This document shows positions 54,563 through 63,621 of a stretch of 64,000 nucleotides of DNA, in pieces (positions within the stretch are counted from its first letter, which is position 1; the number at the start of each line of letters is the position of its first letter). The translations under genes were made by a program, and so were the position numbers. Below the pieces are notes generated by a model, which saw only the letters and a list, made by a program, of their open reading frames with translations, had not been told where the DNA came from and did not search any database. The DNA comes from a virus. The stretch is taken from positions 1 through 64,000 of the IMG/VR virus record IMGVR_UViG_3300021512_000004. One strand, written 5' to 3'.

Positions 54563-55321
54563 ATGAAAAACATACAATTGAAAATACTGAGTCCGCTAGT
54601 AGGAAATGAGTTCCCAATTCCAGCTTACTCAACAGAGGGATCTGCCGGAATGGATCTCAGGGCCTGCATTGAGCAGGAAATGGCTGTCAGTAAAGGAAAA
54701 GCAGTCTTAATCCCTACTGGGGTAGCTATACACATAGAAGACCCTGCATACGCTGCAGTAATCTTACCAAGATCAGGTCTGGGCCATAAGCATGGAGTAG
54801 TCCTTGGCAATCTGGTGGGGCTGATTGACAGTAAAAATCATAGGTAAATTGCTGTCATTAAATTCGGTGAATTGCTGGGAAATCCTTAGAGTTCTTATAC
54901 CAAAGCGGAACTGGAAACGGTAAACGTAACGGTTTGAAAAGTTAAGAAATTGGACAATCAGCAGCCAAGACCCTGAAAAGTGTAAAAGTATGGGTAAGGT
55001 TCAACGACTAGGTGTTGAGTTAGCTAGACGATACTACACCCACGAGCGCCGGACACTTAAATTAAGTGAAGATATAGTCTGAACTTTAGGGAAACTTAAA
55101 GAAACAAGGATAAAGAGCCTTGTGATAACACGATGGATTACCAAGGACAGTTGATGATCTCCTGCTGGAATAGGAGCGATGTGAGCTACATAGTGAAGCC
55201 TGGGGAGCGCATAGCCCAGTTGATCATTGTTCCTGTAGTGCAGGCAGAATTTGAAGTGGTTGAGGAGTTTAGCCAGAGTCAAAGAGGGGAGGGAGGATTT
55301 GGCAGTACTGGAGTTTGTTAA
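54563..55321 (+). CDS. dut: dUTPase split by a group I intron (exon 1 54563-54832, exon 2 55136-55321)
   Basis: The joined product restores motif 3 GLIDS|DYQG; SAGMDL, PRSG, RIAQ and [10 protein letters not shown] are all present. Confidence 0.92.
54833..55135 (+). ncRNA. Group I self-splicing intron, 303 nt, no homing endonuclease ORF
   Basis: Exon 1 ends in U and the intron ends in G; P1 TGACAGT/GCTGTCA with U.G pair; core elements GAATTGCTGGGAAA, AATCAGCAG, GTTCAACGACTA and AAGATATAGTCT. Confidence 0.9.
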
Positions 55322-55693: not shown

Positions 55694-55959
55694 TCCGAGG
55701 AACAGAAAAAGAAGACATTCAAGCCCTACTAAGACAGGGGATATGTGAAGTAGTATTCACTAAAAAGGACGGATCAGAGCGACAGATGAACTGTACTCTC
55801 GATCAGACGTTCCTGCCATTAGTTGACCAGGAGTCTACTGGAACCGCAACAGGAGAGCATGAAGGATTAGTGACTGTTTGGGATACCGATGCTGAAGGAG
55901 GGAGAAGAATAATTCTTGAGAATATTATTTACGGTCCTAAGCTCCTAACAGGAGAGTAG
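55690..55959 (+). CDS. WYL_2/DUF2693-like SH3-fold protein
   Basis: V.FTKKDGS.R.M.CT and VWD.....R motifs. Confidence 0.7.
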   Translation: MIRGTEKEDIQALLRQGICEVVFTKKDGSERQMNCTLDQTFLPLVDQESTGTATGEHEGLVTVWDTDAEGGRRIILENIIYGPKLLTGE

Positions 55960-56021
55960 GGCCGCTCCCAAAGAGGGGTAGGAGCGGCCCTACTAACATT
56001 GGAACTCCGCAGAGGGGGACA

Positions 56022-56356
56022 AGGCGCTCTGCGGAGTAGAAAGTATACCTTACAGGTTATGTACGTTCAATAGGAGTGGAGTTATGGCAAGCATTTTTGT
56101 AATGACAGACCCTATGTCTGAAGTTTACTACTCGCTGAAGGATAATCGGGTTAGAAAGTTCAACCTTCATGGGAAAACGCTGTATGACGAATATAAAGGG
56201 GTTTCTGCGGAAGGGTGGGAGGATGCGCTAGTAAAGTTCGTGAAACAGCAGCGATTGAATATAGATGGAGGGGAAGGACTTCCCTCATTCGTGTACGGCC
56301 TGATTGATAGAGGACTGCTGGAAGACTAACAGGCGCTCTGCGGAGTAGAAAGTATA
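56022..56356 (+). repeat. 26-bp direct repeat flanking ORF 56084-56329
   Basis: AGGCGCTCTGCGGAGTAGAAAGTATA at 56022-56047 and 56331-56356. Confidence 0.85.
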
Positions 56357-57384
56357 TATCATAAGGTAGGAGGGAGCTAGAGATGAGGTATAAAACTGAA
56401 AATAAGCACATAGATGAGATTAGAAGCGGAGACTACGTGTTACATAATGAGGAGGTGGTAACTGTAGGGCGGAGGGATATAAAACTGAGCGAATTTATGG
56501 GAACAACTCTGTTCGGAGACTGCTATCACTTGGGAACAAAGCCAGTGAAAAAGGTGACAATCCTTGGGAGTGAAAGACTATGAGCATCAAAACAACATGT
56601 CAGAATGGACTGACACTATGATTGAGGACAAGATGGCGGAACCGTTTTTCCGGCACAGTATGTTTAACAATTACACTCTGCCACGTTAGCTGAGTTGCTA
56701 TCAATTACGGAGGGATAATTATGTGCTTGATAACCGACGTGTATGATGCTGGATACGACTGTAGTAAAAAGGAGAAAGGCTATAGCCCAGAAGGTAGCGC
56801 CGCAGTAGCCCTGGCAAAACATGAGATAGCCTGCCTGAAACTTGAAAGCGAGGGTTATTTTGCAAAGATACAAAAGATGAGGGCTACTCTAGAGTTGACG
56901 AAGAGATCTATTATCGACAGGAGGCTTAATATGCCAGAGACAATGGCCGTGATTGAGGAGGCTTTAGCCTCGCAGCGGTCGATTAAGCTACCATTTAATT
57001 TTGGATAAATCCACGGGGGTTGCAGATGAGACTAAAAATTAAACAGAGCCAGAATTTAAAAGAAGGGGAGGTAAGGGTTTGCAAAGGGTTTCTATGGTTG
57101 CCTAAATACCTGGATAGAGAGTGGAGGTGGCTTGAGTTTGCAGAATGGGCACAAATGACAATGCGACTACCCCCACTTGCGGTTGAAGTCGGTTGCTATT
57201 CCCCAGGGCAAACTCCCCTTCAATGGGTGAGTACGGAGTGGAGGTAACCCCCGGGCTGGTTCCTTATAGTTGTAAATTTACTATTTGGAGCGTTAAACGT
57301 AAGGAATTTTACGCAGCTCTAACACCAGATTCAGCTGCGCGCTTGGCGCGTCCGCTGGAATTAATGTTAGATTGCGATTGATTT

Positions 57385-57624
57385 TTGGAGGATGAGAGAG
57401 TGGATAAAGCAAAAGAGATTCGCAGGGGATTTGTTGATATTTGGAAATGGATAGGCTCGCCAGATTGTTGGTTTTTAATAATGGTTACGTTTTGCCTCTG
57501 GTGCATATTTTTAGCTCCAGAATCAGCTATCGCTGGGCTTGCGAATACATTTATTGTTATCGGGCTGGTTATAATTTGGCATTTGGCAAGAATCGCAAAA
57601 TCCTTAGAGGACAAGGCAATCTAA
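57385..57624 (+). CDS. Cassette ORF: small membrane protein with 2 TM segments (may start at GTG 57400)
   Basis: Stop TAA lies within the TAAC of attC2. Confidence 0.6.
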   Translation: MEDERVDKAKEIRRGFVDIWKWIGSPDCWFLIMVTFCLWCIFLAPESAIAGLANTFIVIGLVIIWHLARIAKSLEDKAI

Positions 57625-57671
57625 CAACCAGCATAACGGGTGAGCGGATAATTTAACTGAGGATGGTGAGC

Positions 57672-58067
57672 ATGGAAAACCAGAACGAACAGAAGCAACA
57701 AGAAACCAGCGGTGAAGAAGCGAATCCGGTTGATGTAATTGTTAGTGCTCGCTGCCCGGACTGCGCTGCTCAGCCTGGCATGCTGCACAAGCTGGGCTGT
57801 GATGTTGAAAAATGCCCCGAATGCGGCTGGCAATATATCAGCTGTGACTGCCCCGCCGAAGAGACAACGGCTCCCCGCCTCCTCTGGTCTGGCGAATGGC
57901 CAGGGATAAGGGAGTGCCGCGAATTTGGATGGTATTCAAAATTGGTTTCTGGGCGCGGCTGGGTGAGCTGTGACAAAAGCGAGCCTGGCGCAAGCGAGAG
58001 CCTCAACCGCCTTGCCGTTGACGCCACATGGGATAAAGAAAAAGGGCGCTACATACTAGAGAGCTAA
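57672..58067 (+). CDS. Cassette ORF: Cys-rich (Zn-binding-like) protein starting inside attC2
   Basis: CPDC..H..GCDVE.CP.CG.Q.ISCDC motif; GAGG RBS in the attC loop. Confidence 0.7.
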   Translation: MENQNEQKQQETSGEEANPVDVIVSARCPDCAAQPGMLHKLGCDVEKCPECGWQYISCDCPAEETTAPRLLWSGEWPGIRECREFGWYSKLVSGRGWVSCDKSEPGASESLNRLAVDATWDKEKGRYILES

Positions 58068-58138
58068 CGCTCGCATAAACTGCGGAGCGTCAGCGGAGTC
58101 AGATTTTCATGCGATTGTTATAAATCTGGAGTAGAACG

Positions 58139-58384
58139 ATGGCAACAAACAAATACGATTTGGACACAGCTTACATCGGAAAAAACCTTAAAATATTGCA
58201 GCGGGATATTGAGCAATATACCCCTCAAGAGATGAGGACAGCTTTGAACAAGCTGGCAGACACGTGCCATAACTTTGCTAAGTGCGGTCGCTGTAGCGGC
58301 TACAACACGTCAACGATGCGACACGATGCGGCTCACTGGTTTTGCTATGACTGCGCCGAGAAGTACCCACTAAAAGCCTTATAA
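58139..58384 (+). CDS. Cassette ORF: Zn-ribbon protein
   Basis: GGAG RBS; CGRC and CYDC; stop lies within attC4. Confidence 0.65.
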   Translation: MATNKYDLDTAYIGKNLKILQRDIEQYTPQEMRTALNKLADTCHNFAKCGRCSGYNTSTMRHDAAHWFCYDCAEKYPLKAL

Positions 58385-58458
58385 CGCTCAATTAAACGGT
58401 TGCGTAGCAATCCGGTTTAAATTGCTTGTTATATTTAATATTAATTCGGAGAAAAATC

Positions 58459-58707
58459 ATGAGTGAAATTGAAACAGTTGCAGCGAGTCTCACTATTGAA
58501 ATGAATGTCACATGCCCTAATCCTGACTGCGGGGATTATATAGATTTGCTGCGATCAGAGTATACGAACGGGGTGGATCATAATGAGGACGGGGGTTTGC
58601 TGCGCCAGATGTTCCCTGAAAATCATAGTAATGAAGATTTTGAGTGTGATGATGTCATTTGCACAAAATGCAAAACAATGTTCAATGTGCGCGAGCTGGA
58701 ATGGTAG
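58459..58707 (+). CDS. Cassette ORF: Zn-ribbon protein
   Basis: GGAG RBS; CPNPDC and CTKC. Confidence 0.65.
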   Translation: MSEIETVAASLTIEMNVTCPNPDCGDYIDLLRSEYTNGVDHNEDGGLLRQMFPENHSNEDFECDDVICTKCKTMFNVRELEW

Positions 58708-58767
58708 TAAATATAACACCCTGCATAACGAGTGAGCGTGGACAACAAAATGAATGAGGTGAACACG

Positions 58768-59070
58768 ATGGGCAAGAACGAAGCCACGAAGACAGAACCC
58801 AGCGGCGAAGAAGCGAATCCAGTTGATGCACTTGTTATGCGGCAACTAGATAAAATCACTGGATATTTTCAGCCTAAACGCACGGAAACGCTGCGCGATG
58901 AAGCCCTGCCATTTGTTGGTCGGCTATTAACATTCGAGGCTCTTTGGCTGATAGATAAAGAAGATGGGGGCCCTTACGTCGGACAATGGGCGATGCGCCC
59001 GATTAATGAAGCAGGGGGCTGGTTGCCAATTGGGTGGGTTCCCGAAGAAGACATTAGACCTGCTACATAA
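58768..59070 (+). CDS. Cassette ORF starting inside attC5
   Basis: GAGGTG RBS in the attC loop; N-terminus homologous to the ORF at 57672. Confidence 0.65.
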   Translation: MGKNEATKTEPSGEEANPVDALVMRQLDKITGYFQPKRTETLRDEALPFVGRLLTFEALWLIDKEDGGPYVGQWAMRPINEAGGWLPIGWVPEEDIRPAT

Positions 59071-59152
59071 CACCCGATTCAGCTGCGCGTTTGGCGCGTC
59101 CGCTGGAATTAATGTTAGATTGCTAATTAATTAATTATGGGGCGATAACGAG

Positions 59153-59341
59153 ATGGCCGAAGTGAAGTTCTGGTGTGACAGCGGGGCAAACATCCATTCT
59201 TGCAATACTGAAACAGTTGATACCGTTGATGATTTAGGGTTAGACGAAGGGGAGTGGGAAAAGCTCACTGATGACGAAAGGCACAAGCATGTTAGGGATT
59301 GGGCTAATAACTACATAGAGATGGGGTGGGCAGCAATCTAA
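59153..59341 (+). CDS. Cassette ORF: small acidic protein
   Basis: Stop lies within attC7. Confidence 0.6.
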   Translation: MAEVKFWCDSGANIHSCNTETVDTVDDLGLDEGEWEKLTDDERHKHVRDWANNYIEMGWAAI

Positions 59342-59383
59342 CGCCCACATAAGCGACTTGATGTGATTGTTATAAATGAAACT

Positions 59384-59533
59384 ATGAAAAAGTATATTTG
59401 CGTTAGGTGTTTAACCGTAATGAGCCGGGTTGAGCTTAGAGACGGAGCAAAACTTAAAAAGATTTCTATTGAGTTAAGCCGGAAAATTAAAATGTGCAAG
59501 TCTTGCACATGCCGGACTTTCTATAGTATTTAA
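59384..59533 (+). CDS. Small CxxC...CxxC protein after the last attC
   Basis: Manual translation MKKYICVRCLTV...MCKSCTCRTFYSI. Confidence 0.45.
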   Translation: MKKYICVRCLTVMSRVELRDGAKLKKISIELSRKIKMCKSCTCRTFYSI

Positions 59534-59725
59534 TTTGGGAGCAAGTAAACGTAAGTAAAAAGACAGTTTTGAATGCTCCGAAGGTGAGCGTAGAGATAAC
59601 TATTGTGTATATTGCAATGGGAAATATCGAGGTGTCCAGAGCATTACGACAATCACGAACAATCTAAGAAAGGCGCTACCGTCTTTCAAGGCAACATAAT
59701 TAGATTGTTTTAAAGAGGGTAAAAT

Positions 59726-60013
59726 ATGGGAAAAGTTTTAAAGTTCAAACGAAAGGTTTCATTCTCAAAGGAGAAGATGATCTCTGCAAATCCTAACGTA
59801 AAGGTAAAAGAAGAGGAGATGGAGATTTATCAAGAATTTGGAAAGGTTTACGCAGATGTATTCGTAAAGCCTCATGGGTTCTACTCCGGGGCGTTCTTAT
59901 TAAACGAAAACACCTTGAAGATAGAGGAGATGGTGAGCCTCCTGCCAAGGAGGTTCTTCCTGTCACAGGTCAGGGCAGCCCAGGAAAAGTGTTGGGCGAA
60001 AGATTGGATTTAA
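59726..60013 (+). CDS. Hypothetical protein
   Basis: GAGG RBS. Confidence 0.55.
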   Translation: MGKVLKFKRKVSFSKEKMISANPNVKVKEEEMEIYQEFGKVYADVFVKPHGFYSGAFLLNENTLKIEEMVSLLPRRFFLSQVRAAQEKCWAKDWI

Positions 60014-60041
60014 ATTGCAAGATGTAATAGTATAACCTTTC

Positions 60042-60539
60042 ATGCGAGTATTGGAGATTAACATGGTGGACAAAGTAAACAACCCTTTAACACGGCAAGA
60101 CTTTACAACTGGAACCTTACCTGGGGAGGTAGCCAAAGACGGTGAGGAGATTGGAGGAGTTAGTAGAACTTTGTTAGGGGCGGAAACCATCAAGGCTAAG
60201 GACGTAGCTGAGTTTGAAAGAAAGGAAGAGTTCGAGCCTGTAAGGAAGTCATCACCGTCAAAGATTTTTTACAATCAGTTAGCCGAGTCTTTGAATAAAA
60301 TGAAAGTAGGGGATATACTCTTGTTCCCTCTACCTGAGAACATGCTTGCTCATAACTTAAAGAAAGTTATGAGCAACAGAGGGGCAAGGGACGGAGTAGA
60401 TATCCAGTATGGTAGAGCAAGGAAAGACTTCCAAGGAAGGACTCTACCAATGAAGCTACGACCGATGACAGTAAAGAAGCTGACAGCCTGCATCATCACA
60501 GTGTTCCCATTAGCAGTCAAAAACAAAGTCAAAGAGTAG
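60042..60539 (+). CDS. Hypothetical protein
   Basis: ORF; probably starts at MVDKVN after a GGAG RBS. Confidence 0.55.
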   Translation: MRVLEINMVDKVNNPLTRQDFTTGTLPGEVAKDGEEIGGVSRTLLGAETIKAKDVAEFERKEEFEPVRKSSPSKIFYNQLAESLNKMKVGDILLFPLPENMLAHNLKKVMSNRGARDGVDIQYGRARKDFQGRTLPMKLRPMTVKKLTACIITVFPLAVKNKVKE

Positions 60540-60610
60540 TGTATTTTGTTTACAACCCTTTGACTTTGTTGAACAAAGTGTAGCAGCTACACACTTACAG
60601 GAGGTAAGAA

Positions 60611-60808
60611 GTGAATGAGAATTTAAGGTACATGAAGGAAGTCCGAGCCAGGTACCGATTAACGCATAGAGAGCTGGCAGCTCTGAGTGAATATGGGTTG
60701 GACTCAGTTAAAGGGTGGTTCTCTACGTCTCCAGGAAGGAAGGTAAATGTTCCTGACAGAGCTGTGGCGATAGTTAAGTTGAAGCTGGAGAAAAGAGAAA
60801 GAACCTGA
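60611..60808 (+). CDS. Cro/XRE-like helix-turn-helix regulator
   Basis: R....LTH.ELA.L......SV..W pattern; AGGAGG RBS. Confidence 0.7.
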   Translation: MNENLRYMKEVRARYRLTHRELAALSEYGLDSVKGWFSTSPGRKVNVPDRAVAIVKLKLEKRERT

Positions 60809-60819
60809 AGGGGGAGGCG

Positions 60820-63621
60820 ATGTATCGCTACTATCAGTTGGAAGAAGGAAAGTCAGAGTGGAAGGTAGCCAGAGCCTCTGAGATAGAGGAAAAAATTAGA
60901 GAGGAGAAACCTAAAAGAGTTGCGATATTGGAAGTTTCCGAGCTGGTAACGGACGGGGCAGATAAAAGGTCATACTATTATAAAGGGCCTTTATATTTCG
61001 ATATAGACTGTAAAGATGACCTTGATTTAGCTCTGCAATCAGGGGTTAGTTTAGTCAATAAATTAGTCTCTATGGGAGTACCGCAGCAGGAAGTTCAGAT
61101 ATTTGCCTCAGGAAGTAAGGGGGTCCATGTTCTAGTTGATGAGAGAGTATTCAGCTCTGGGAGAAAGGTCAAAGCCCTGCCTCTAGTTTATAAGCAGATG
61201 GCCAGGGAGCTGTATGTTCCTGGAATGGATTTCGCAGTGTATTCTTGCGGAAGGGGAAATGTGTTTAGGGTTCCCAACATAAAAAGGCCAGACGGGAATT
61301 ATAGGATACCAATCCTGTACGACAAGTTAACTTCCCTAAATGCAGAGAGTTACAGAGAACTTTGCTCTAAGCCTAGTGAGATATCCCACCTCCTGCCAGA
61401 GAACAAAGTAAAAGCCCTGCAGTTAGAAGATATGTTTAACAGGTGCAAAAAGGCGGCGAACTCTAAGCCTGCAGTAGTTGTCACTGTACCTTCCAACCAG
61501 ATGATACAGTTGAGAGACGTGACCCCTCCTTGCATACAGAAGGTGTGCGACTGGAAAGGGCTGAGGGCTGAGGTAAACCTGAACCAAGCAGCTATGCAAG
61601 TAGCAGTTTTCCTAAAGGCTGCCAGTGTCCCAGACTCCCTGTCTTCGGGGATGATAACCAGATTAGCGGAAAACTCCGTAAGCTCGAAGTATGACAACTG
61701 GAAATCTAGGCTAGAGCACATAAAGGGCCAGGTAGAGTACATGAAGGGCTCTGAATATACCTTCGGATGCAACTGCATGAGGTCTCTGCTTCTGAAGCGG
61801 CCCTGTGAAGGGTGTCCCATCGAGAAGGATCAGGCGTTCTCTGAAGAGGCTTCACATGGCGGGTTGATAGAGAAGAATGGTGGGTACTACCTCAGAGGGG
61901 CAGAGAAGGATCGAATGATAACAGACTGGACGATGAAACCTATGGACTCTTTCATCGACATCCCTCAGGACGGATCCAGTCAACCTAGAAGGGTGGGAAC
62001 TCTCTTCGAACTGATACAGAACGACGAAACCATCTGTACCGTTACAGTAGACGAAACCAGCTGGATGTCTCGATCAGGATTCCTCAGGGACACCACGGAG
62101 TCCGGGTATATCCCTCTCCGATCCCCCTGTAGCTACTACGGGCAAGATGCAGACCTACACAAGATCAGAAATCACGTTTTTAGGAAGGAGAGCGACATGG
62201 GAGAAGTCTACCAAGTTTATACTTGTGGGATACACGTTGATAAGGTGAGCCATTCTGACGTATTCACCTACGTTGAGCCTGAAATGTCCATAAATAGTAA
62301 CAGGGTTTCAGGCACTCATAAACTGGCAGGCCGGGTTGTAGCCAGACCTTACTTCGCTGAAGTGGGAGTGTGTAAGGAGGGAGACGAGGCTGCAGACGAG
62401 GCTCTGTTTAATCTGATGGCGATGAATGAACCCCACGTCATGGCGAAGACACTTGGTTGGTTTGTAGCCTGCCATTTGAAAGTCCATCTGACAAAAGTCT
62501 ATCACCAATTCCCCGTCCTGAGTTTGTGGGGAGGGGCGGGATCTGGGAAGTCTATCACTGCAGGTCTAGTTAGTTGGATCAACGGGACAGACTACATGGA
62601 CAGAGATACAGGAGTGAACGTCTCCAACATCACCAACTACGCCTTGCTGGAGTATTCGGCCAGCACAACGACAATCCCAAGGCTGATGGAGGAGTTCAAC
62701 GAGTCTAAGATGTCAGAGAAAGCCTACAACTCTGTTGGGGAAATTCTAAAGGCCAGCTGGAACGGGGAAACTTTGCTGCGGGGTACTTTAGGCAACAAAT
62801 CGGATAAGGGGAGGACGGGGGCAGTGGTTACGGCTATTCCTATCACAGGGCCTCTATGTGTGATGAGCGAGCAAAGGCCGGTTATGCCTGCCATCCAGGA
62901 GAGGTCTTTGGACGTATTCTTATCAAAGCCTGGGAAGAAAGGAAGAAAGCCTTACATGAGGAAGGCTTCTTCTGGAAAGCTCAAGTTAAGGGAGATAGGA
63001 AAGGCACTTATGTTTAAGGCTCTTCAGACGGATATAAAGACAGCGACCAAGTGGTTTGACGAGGTGGATGATAGTTTGTCCGACGAGTTAGACGATAGGC
63101 CGAGATATTGTCAGATGGTGGCAATGATAGGCTTGAGATTTCTGAAGTTAGTGCTAGAGAAAGACCTTAAACTCCCTAAATCCTGTGCAAGATTAGACGA
63201 CCTCATCTACACTCAGCAGTCTTACTTTGACAGATTGGCAGGTGATACTGCCATACTGGGGGCCAGCACTGAGATAGACAGGATATTGGACAAGATGGCC
63301 ATCATGGCGTCCTTGACCACTGTAGGTAACGGGGTTGAGTGGCTTGTGGCAGGAGTTCACTACCTGAAAGGTGGGTCAGAGCTGCTGATAGATCCAACCC
63401 TATGTCACGCCATGTACAAGCAGTTCTGTGCTAGGGAAAGCAGAGAGGTGGTGATTATCAAGGAAGCTGCACAATTCAAGAAACTCCTCAGGGATGAAGC
63501 GTACTTCAAAGAGATTGTTAGGGATCCAAATATATTTGACGGTAGGGAGCTTTATTGCTTGGACCTAGAATCCATGAAGATGCAGGAGATTCCTGTAGAT
63601 AGGTTTGAGGAGTTGACGTAA
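60820..63621 (+). CDS. Primase (AEP-like) and helicase fusion replication protein
   Basis: YFDID and SGSKGVH primase motifs, PPCI and C..C cluster, Walker A GGAGSGKS, Walker B LMEEF. Confidence 0.8.
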   Translation: MYRYYQLEEGKSEWKVARASEIEEKIREEKPKRVAILEVSELVTDGADKRSYYYKGPLYFDIDCKDDLDLALQSGVSLVNKLVSMGVPQQEVQIFASGSKGVHVLVDERVFSSGRKVKALPLVYKQMARELYVPGMDFAVYSCGRGNVFRVPNIKRPDGNYRIPILYDKLTSLNAESYRELCSKPSEISHLLPENKVKALQLEDMFNRCKKAANSKPAVVVTVPSNQMIQLRDVTPPCIQKVCDWKGLRAEVNLNQAAMQVAVFLKAASVPDSLSSGMITRLAENSVSSKYDNWKSRLEHIKGQVEYMKGSEYTFGCNCMRSLLLKRPCEGCPIEKDQAFSEEASHGGLIEKNGGYYLRGAEKDRMITDWTMKPMDSFIDIPQDGSSQPRRVGTLFELIQNDETICTVTVDETSWMSRSGFLRDTTESGYIPLRSPCSYYGQDADLHKIRNHVFRKESDMGEVYQVYTCGIHVDKVSHSDVFTYVEPEMSINSNRVSGTHKLAGRVVARPYFAEVGVCKEGDEAADEALFNLMAMNEPHVMAKTLGWFVACHLKVHLTKVYHQFPVLSLWGGAGSGKSITAGLVSWINGTDYMDRDTGVNVSNITNYALLEYSASTTTIPRLMEEFNESKMSEKAYNSVGEILKASWNGETLLRGTLGNKSDKGRTGAVVTAIPITGPLCVMSEQRPVMPAIQERSLDVFLSKPGKKGRKPYMRKASSGKLKLREIGKALMFKALQTDIKTATKWFDEVDDSLSDELDDRPRYCQMVAMIGLRFLKLVLEKDLKLPKSCARLDDLIYTQQSYFDRLAGDTAILGASTEIDRILDKMAIMASLTTVGNGVEWLVAGVHYLKGGSELLIDPTLCHAMYKQFCARESREVVIIKEAAQFKKLLRDEAYFKEIVRDPNIFDGRELYCLDLESMKMQEIPVDRFEELT

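Follow-up and report, generated by a model that had tools for sequence, protein, structure and literature searches.

A phage cluster of integron-type attC sites with its genes on the predicted recombining strand

An uncultured phage of about 75 kb, placed in hydrothermal-vent metagenomes by public contig matches, carries a compact array of integron-type recombination sites (attC) whose genes appear to lie on the strand opposite to the one they occupy in bacterial integrons. We analysed the first 64 kb (64,000 nucleotides, hereafter the window) of its IMG/VR record, IMGVR_UViG_3300021512_000004, which is linear, 74,740 bp long and estimated to be 90% complete. At 57317-59533 seven small plus-strand open reading frames (ORFs; c1 to c7) alternate with seven imperfect palindromes (s1 to s7), the latter packed into 2.06 kb. 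The array is a CALIN (cluster of attC sites lacking an integron integrase), a class defined by at least two close attC sites with no intI nearby. Our analysis supports the conclusion that the recombining (bottom) attC strand is the plus strand, which is also the coding strand of every cassette gene; site anatomy and polarity are the solid part of this account. Phage CALINs are already known, and what appears to be new here, judged from sequence, is the inverted gene polarity and the organization into units that begin with attC.

All seven palindromes extend from (Y)TAAC to GTTA(R/Y) with AAC and GTT invariant, and the inverted R″/R′ cores (RYYYAAC / GTTRRRY) are present at every one (Table 1). 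The initial annotation had reported seven sites at 57317-59375, and all were found (57317-59376). Folded with DNA parameters, each site forms an outer stem of 5-7 bp, which an internal loop separates from a second, singly bulged stem that ends in a variable tip. We located the extra base by aligning the 5′ arm of each site against the reverse complement of its 3′ arm. All seven sites carry a single extra base in the plus-strand 3′ arm, 3-4 bp inward of the unpaired spacer (the internal loop), so that fold and alignment agree with the annotation, which had put the extra L-box base in the right plus-strand arm throughout. This base is a G at five sites (s1, s2, s5, s6, s7), a C at s3 and an A at s4. 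The spacers are asymmetric in s2 and s5 (6/5 nt, as in the class 1 aadA2 site) and in s1 and s6 (5/4 nt), and symmetric (5/5 or 4/4) in s3, s4 and s7. Sites s2 and s5 share the plus-strand layout TAAC-AACCAG-CATAAC...GTTgATG-TAATT-GTTA, and s6 matches s1 over 55 nt at about 96% identity, from TAAC through GTTAGATTGC, with the shared stretch reaching 9 nt beyond GTT. Left of TAAC these two part, with four bases different (CTC versus ACA).

Table 1. Sites, cassette genes and neighbouring features in the window. R1, covariance model described in the text; L-box bases in lower case are extrahelical.
Feature	Position	Strand	TAAC-to-GTTA span	R1 score (bits)	Description
s1	57317..57373	+	57320-57369	23.6 (plus), 12.4 (minus)	R′ CTCTAAC; spacers 5/4; L box ATTCAGC/GCTgGAAT; extrahelical G; R″ GTTAGAT
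s2	57619..57748	+	57622-57744	14.1	long type, 130 nt; spacers 6/5; L box CATAAC/GTTgATG
s3	58062..58124	+	58065-58120	undetected	extra C (or TC) in 3′ arm; spacers 5/5
s4	58379..58435	+	58382-58431	11.4	L box ATTAAAC/GTTTaAAT; extrahelical A
s5	58711..58842	+	58714-58837	13.1	long type, related to s2
s6	59065..59121	+	59068-59117	14.0	near-twin of s1
s7	59336..59376	+	59339-59372	13.6	short, 41 nt; L box CACATAAG/CTTgATGTG; extrahelical G
c1	57400..57624	+			74 aa, predicted small membrane protein; GTG start 7 nt after GGAGGA; stop is TAA of s2
c2	57672..58067	+			131 aa, zinc-finger-like, CPDC...CREFGW family; stop is TAA of s3
c3	58139..58384	+			81 aa, CxxC...CxxC motif; stop is TAA of s4
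c4	58459..58707	+			82 aa, zinc-ribbon-like; stop TAG 7 nt before TAAC of s5
c5	58768..59070	+			about 100 aa; stop is TAA of s6
c6	59153..59341	+			62 aa, DUF7167 / phrog_8831; stop is TAA of s7
c7	59384..59533	+			49 aa, CxxC...CxxC; last cassette, no attC after it
Group I intron	54804..55101	+			early region; Rfam RF00028, 101.9 bits, E 2.8e-25
Direct repeat, first copy	57283..57306				ATTTGGAGCGTTAAACGTAAGGAA
Direct repeat, second copy	59533..59558				ATTTGGGAGCAAGTAAACGTAAGTAA; begins at the c7 stop
Perfect 10-bp hairpin	59658..59709				AACAATCTAA ... TTAGATTGTT; AAC/GTT core, no spacer or bulge
Primase-like gene	60820..63621				933 aa

Only one asymmetry is conserved in attC, an L″ G that finds no partner in L′ and directs strand choice, and the cut on the bottom strand falls between A and C of the R′ box (PMC2727003); recombination is about 1000-fold more efficient with the bottom than with the top strand (PMC13108822). 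As a class 1 reference we located attI1 in plasmids and took the attC sites from seven integrons with annotated cassettes. In every one of these sites, read along the gene, the extra base is a C in the left arm, which on the non-coding (bottom) strand becomes a 3′-arm G. It is thus the non-coding strand that carries the class 1 geometry of R box, spacer, 3 bp, extrahelical 3′-arm base and loop. The bottom strand of aadA2, for example, reads TAAC-GCCGGA-GTTAAGC...GCTTgAAC-GAATT-GTTA, and the coding strand of s2 and s5 has exactly this geometry.

A covariance model, R1, was built from the bottom strands of the seven class 1 attC sites only and run with filters off. In the window it returned 13 matches in a search space of 128 kb. 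Six of the top seven fell within the same 2.06 kb, all on the plus strand, in the order s1, s2, s6, s7, s5, s4; this clustering is far beyond chance and highly non-random. The only minus-strand match in the array was an echo of s1, which scored above s4 and 11 bits below the plus-strand match at s1. R1 found nothing in the last 10.7 kb of the phage genome, and its best full-length match in 94 kb of bacterial control loci reached 11.5 bits, about the score of the weakest window site, s4. Held-out class 1 sites were recovered on the non-coding strand in each case (GES-5, 58.5 bits; GES-1, 51.9; an unannotated cassette, 33.5; blaIMP-13, 13.1), and those of dfrA1 and dfrA15 were missed, so the sensitivity of R1 is low. 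In the published CALIN of Tetrasphaera phage TJE1 the three sites (21-30 bits) also lay on the non-coding strand. The initial annotation had placed the attC top strand on minus and had named in advance a covariance-model strand test as one that this placement could fail; R1 puts the bottom strand on plus, in favour of the inverted polarity, with the class 1 and TJE1 controls on the non-coding strand.

The array could also be read as an ordinary one in which the strand call is wrong, with plus as the top strand, each ORF followed by its attC and a G|TT crossover at the right. Read along plus, the order ORF, stop in RYYYAAC, palindrome and GTTRRRY does resemble a textbook cassette, but the extra base is then in the wrong arm for a top strand at all seven sites, and R1 prefers plus at s1, the only site with a reported minus match, with every control on the non-coding strand. 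Such a reading would split c2 and c5 from their starts, which lie within s2 and s5, and would leave c7 without a site and s1 at 70 nt from any upstream ORF. It gains something from a near-identical relative found in another metagenome (run X2, described below), where the block containing c6 begins at TG|TTAGA, and from the many loose contig ends that diverge right after GTTA; within attC families, though, it is the right box and not the left that is constant. The ordinary-array reading therefore seems already disfavoured, and we regard it as highly improbable.

Read with attC first, the seven sites pair one to one with the seven downstream ORFs and none is left over, and only this reading keeps c2 and c5 whole, because s2 and s5 hold their starts. 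Five of the six ORFs followed by a site stop at the TAA of the next TAAC, c4 being the exception; for a random frame, five of six stops in frame with TAAC have a probability of about p = 0.018. Ordinary cassettes also often stop inside the left TAAC box (dfrA1 and aadB), so that only the strand asymmetry, not stop placement, sets the window array apart. Within attC families (s1/s6, s3/s7 and one pair in the phage record L050, below) the outer left box differs between members and the right box does not, and this constant-to-variable limit at the left box in the twins marks the left box as the one exchanged. Following the rule for the bottom-strand cut (PMC2727003), the crossover would fall at TAA|C, a position that fits both the identity limits of s1 and s6 and the c4 block of run X2. 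The annotation's unit of attC followed by an ORF ending in TAA thus agrees with the one-to-one pairing, the starts within s2 and s5 and the c4 block, the TAA|C crossover itself being predicted; the c6 block of X2 does not conform to it. Its further proposal that crossover comes directly after a stop codon describes the window well and does not extend beyond it. In the three other inverted phage arrays (L050, L048 and MW202573) most upstream ORFs end within the attC that follows or run on through it, and stop-then-crossover is accordingly a feature of the window phage and not of the class.

The cassette ORFs are all on plus, as the annotation had it, and so is every ORF with a ribosome-binding site; those of c1 to c5 are GGAG-type and at the proper distance, and the families of c2 and c6 bear out the same orientation. 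The ATG of c2, its ribosome-binding site and some 24 leader codons lie in the loop of s2, and the loop of s5 contains the ribosome-binding site, ATG and leader (SGEEANPVD) of c5, a gene unrelated to c2. The conserved domain of c2 starts only near residue 31, and one c2 homologue, P0002, has a leader similar to that of c2. We found 22 homologues of c2 at 42-69% identity; the family occurs in 92 viral contigs and also in 12 bacterial loci. The bacterial loci held no convincing attC, the only match being one of 11.5 bits, 1 kb downstream in locus L139. The c6 product belongs to DUF7167 (Pfam, 4.5e-10) and phrog_8831 (PHROGs, 5.1e-24). Together these two families uphold the expectation that homologues of the cassette genes would be phage genes. 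No family match was obtained for c1 (Pfam and PHROGs) or c3, and IMG/VR protein probes with c4 and c6 returned no close relatives. In codon usage (log-odds about 0.05 for plus ORFs, about -0.07 for minus ORFs and 0.20 ± 0.08 for long phage genes) the cassette ORFs at 57400-59533 are less phage-like than the long genes, consistent with an accessory or foreign origin.

The inverted layout recurs across phage records. We scanned with R1 80 viral loci that encode relatives of c2, repeating the scan with filters off, and two of them hold further arrays: L050, a 65.6-kb record with an estimated completeness of 100%, has six sites (15-37 bits), and L048, a 33-kb provirus, has three (22-33 bits). All nine lie on the strand that encodes the c2 homologue, and genes for an RNA ligase (PF09414, 2.8e-18) and a YfbR-like HD nucleotidase lie on the same strand. 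In MW202573, shown in Figure 2D of Qi et al. (2023), R1 found five sites (16-42 bits) on plus, the strand of all annotated coding sequences of the region, and so the same polarity as in the window. Across four independent phage arrays 20 of 20 R1-scored sites are on the coding strand, and TJE1 alone is canonical. The proposal of a distinct phage-adapted cassette class is thus strengthened by three more inverted phage arrays and limited by TJE1, as not all phage arrays are inverted. R1 gave no match in Pseudoalteromonas phage H101 or Polaribacter phage P12002L, which, at its low sensitivity, says nothing on the published sites.

In L048 (1903-2892, plus) the site at 2436 has the R′ box GCCGAAC, without a stop, so that the ORF for the HD nucleotidase runs in frame through attC into the c2 homologue. 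This read-through may be a translational fusion produced by juxtaposition of cassettes. The attC 5′ arm AACGTGTAGCTAAGGG(A/G)CTGCGC occurs in L050 (3897-3925 and 4303-4331), in L178 (1282-1310) and in L174 (13208-13235, minus), and is common to three viral records, MW202573 included. Together with the TAAC box, present at three of four sites, it holds stops in three frames (TAA, TAG, TAA), and any upstream frame would therefore be closed. In L174 (13230-13530, minus) a single ORF has the 3′ half of a long attC upstream and the 5′ half downstream, and the arms of these half-sites, GCGCAGTCCC and GGGACTGCGC, are mutually complementary.

Translation signals within the sites raise the possibility that the hairpins act mainly as RNA on the mRNA-sense strand: they might serve as platforms for translation starts, couple a stop to a restart, or stabilise the mRNA or guide its processing, with recombination rare or extinct. 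Like s2 and s5, most L050 and MW202573 sites are long and carry a ribosome-binding site and ATG in the loop with a translated 3′ arm (as in ...GGLDT). The ORFs upstream of L050 and MW202573 sites usually stop inside the next attC, in the 5′ arm, at AAC-GTG-TAG or at an ATGA overlap, and the window array has no promoters of its own, all of which an RNA role would accommodate. The short sites s1, s3, s4, s6 and s7 have no translation signal, and an RNA role leaves the conserved integrase-specific features unexplained. Cassette content, moreover, differs between phages whose flanks are 97-99% identical, which indicates that units moved recently. RNA and recombination roles are mutually compatible; as the main function of the sites, an RNA role strikes us as improbable.

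Differences in cassette content can be followed in assembled metagenome contigs (runs X1, X2, X3 and X5), in which uncovered parts of the window were counted as absent from X2, X3 and X5 only where a contig bridges the gap or diverges at its boundary. Run X2, from another study, contains a relative of the window phage with 97-99% identity over the two flanking stretches, 55800-56968 and 59567-60900; c1, c2, c3, c5 and c7 are missing from it. It keeps 58380-58717, a block of s4 and c4 that ends at the C of the following TAAC and is succeeded by a different, s3-like attC, and this c4 block was found in runs X2, X3 and X5. It shares c6 only from 59113 (TGTTAGA) to 59342, without either attC interior. 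Contigs of four runs show the same attC families beside many different neighbours on both sides. Summed contig depth jumps at two sites, in X1 from about 13 to 80 at s3 and to 48 at s4, with s3 the highest of all sites in X1, X2 and X5, and the points where many contigs diverge coincide with the outer site boundaries; rising depth together with this divergence indicates that the attC families are repeated. These population differences support cassette mobility. The X2 relative also has about 150 extra bases inserted at window position 56596 and a replacement of everything from 56968 to the first attC, so that variability extends beyond the attC array.

Mobility of this kind might instead come from general or phage homologous recombination, with the hairpins as module junctions and their likeness to attC ancestral or convergent. 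Near-identical repeats of 40-130 nt between genes would then serve as do conserved boundary sequences or T4-type promoter stem-loops, and the stretch shared by s1 and s6 is long enough. Breakpoints in the X runs fall at the AAC box and the GTT box alike, the attC families have many neighbours in four runs, the c6 block in X2 keeps neither attC interior, and no recombinase was found in the viral records searched for one, all as homologous exchange would have it. Homology alone fails to explain why the integrase-recognition geometry (a spacer, asymmetric at four of the seven window sites, and an extrahelical base, mostly G, 3 bp away) lies on one strand at all 21 sites of four phages. Phage attC sites of such a kind have also been recombined by IntI1 in experiments (PMC9892861), and the analogy with T4-type elements is weakened by the lack of a promoter with the window stem-loops. 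Taken together, we judge homologous exchange an unlikely main route, if the strongest of the rivals.

The array sits in a rightward, promoter-less early or middle phage operon. Structural genes on the minus strand occupy the left half of the window, and a rightward block of small genes runs up to the primase-like gene. A sigma-70-like promoter scan of the plus strand at 56500-60200, which leaves phage-specific promoters outside its reach, found none, and the cassette genes are therefore probably read through from upstream. No attC-like fold was present in the flanks of the array, before s1 or after c7. A group I intron in the early region was the sole match of an Rfam scan of the window, Rfam having no attC family. 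The array is bracketed by an imperfect direct repeat of about 25 nt, which could be a trace of the entry of the array or a shared intergenic motif. Further downstream, contigs of run X1 end at 59657-59659, beside the perfect hairpin, and depth increases there. Near relatives of the array region were absent from the phage collection, and an exact-match search of IMG/VR with the s1/s6 core and the s2/s5 leader gave no match. A 17-mer of s3/s7 occurred at 34 loci, none of which has an attC-like site by R1, and was set aside as a chance match. Relatives of the primase are distant (40-56% identity; 4 viral and 26 metagenome loci), and their loci hold no attC array.

The class assignment follows from the same data. 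A complete integron has intI, attI and a cassette promoter (Pc), and here there is no integrase and no plus-strand promoter in 56500-60200. The third component, attI, is not recognisable from sequence. A canonical cassette has its ORF on the top strand, ahead of its attC, an arrangement seen at no scored site, and in the sigma-70-like scan of 56500-60200 no early promoter is joined to a stem-loop, as in T4-type elements.

We consider it probable that the array is a CALIN of reversed polarity embedded in a phage operon, the units of which are swapped by a host integrase through the bottom strand. A unit would begin at the C of the box and continue through the rest of attC; after this would come the ribosome-binding site and start, which s2 and s5 hold within their loops, and the ORF down to TAA. 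A host integron integrase would act in trans on folded single-stranded phage DNA, and bottom-strand exchange at RYYYAA|C would excise and insert units. In the window phage the exchange point would come right after the stop of the upstream gene, and a new gene would join the operon in sense. Ordinary bacterial cassettes would enter such an array antisense, phage units placed in a bacterial integron would likewise oppose the direction of Pc, and the phage and bacterial cassette pools would be functionally separate.

Several observations weigh against this account. The supply of the enzyme in trans is an assumption. Neither an integron integrase (TIGR02249) nor a tyrosine recombinase of any kind (PF00589) is present in the 74.7-kb window record, which is estimated to be 90% complete. 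An integron integrase was found in none of the three records searched (G000, G001 and G002, the L050 and L048 records included), and a tyrosine recombinase in neither G000 nor G002, with only a faint partial match at the contig end of G001; MW202573 was not part of either search. Sites s3 and s4 do not have the conserved G as their extra base, and R1, even with filters off, misses s3 in the window. Its E-values (0.001 for s1 and 0.26-1.3 for the five other sites) are weak individually. Codon usage does not cleanly separate plus from minus ORFs and was not used as evidence. The contigs of the X runs are unphased assemblies, which give presence and junctions and not frequencies. Finally, c6 in X2 is preceded by an s4-like attC ending in the s6-type GTTAGATTGC, a chimera that needs exchange at the right-hand GTT box or homologous recombination and not a bottom-strand AA|C exchange.

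The polarity matters because in integrons recombination of the bottom strand makes cassettes enter in sense relative to Pc, and the inverted phage arrays have the opposite gene polarity. If the reversed-polarity account is true, phages use integrase-type sites and yet express the genes, with the phage operon replacing Pc; phage and bacterial cassette pools are not freely interchangeable; and an attC at the 5′ end of a unit could carry translation signals, which bears on how cassettes are born. A wider proposal, which we offer tentatively and lean somewhat against, is that phages keep their own pool of mirror-image, attC-first cassettes, with the recombining strand in sense and often with a ribosome-binding site and start codon in the attC loop, swapped by host integrases between co-infecting or resident phages. 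Their polarity would keep bacterial cassettes, defence genes among many of them, from being expressed in phage arrays, and phage cassettes from being expressed in bacterial integrons. The arrays mark hypervariable phage accessory genes, such as those for RNA ligase, methyltransferase and small zinc-finger proteins, which are candidates for counter-defence, and strand-aware attC searches of viral databases could list more of them.

The closest known systems are the phage CALINs of Qi, Rajabal, Ghaly, Tetu and Gillings (2023, Front Microbiol, PMC9892861), which share with the window array the clustering of attC sites without an integrase. They occur in virulent or uncultured phages, the attC sites separate small accessory genes such as methyltransferases, and IntI1 recombined five of six phage sites tested. 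The paper treats phage arrays as typical, and speaks neither of a bottom strand on the coding strand nor of attC sites that contain the start of the downstream gene; the literature searched likewise holds no report of either in phage arrays. The window has seven sites, against about three per phage scored here or given in figure legends for the examples of PMC9892861.

With canonical cassettes, those of class 1 and of sedentary chromosomal integrons, the array shares R″/R′ cores, L boxes, an unpaired spacer, an extrahelical G and a variable loop, as well as one small promoter-less gene per unit and the homogeneous attC families of chromosomal integrons. The canonical gene lies on the top strand, upstream of attC, whereas in the window it lies on the bottom strand, downstream of attC. 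In canonical integrons the platform provides IntI, attI and Pc; in the window there is transcription from the phage operon, and no IntI or recognisable attI was found. Inverted cassettes of the Vibrio cholerae superintegron, for example those with toxin-antitoxin genes, are likewise antisense to the canonical orientation. Inverted cassettes of chromosomal integrons are a minority in otherwise canonical arrays and have their own promoters, whereas in the window every cassette is inverted, has no recognisable promoter and is read through from outside. The early-promoter stem-loops (PeSLs) of T4-type phages and the boundary sequences of lambdoid phages are likewise repeated intergenic hairpins or short conserved sequences, found in phage early regions and associated with gene shuffling. 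Both kinds of element, the PeSLs being those of Arbiol et al. (2010), reportedly come with an early promoter and lack an AAC/GTT core as well as the asymmetric spacer and the extrahelical base. The window sites differ from them in that no promoter was found with them and all but s3 give matches to the attC model.

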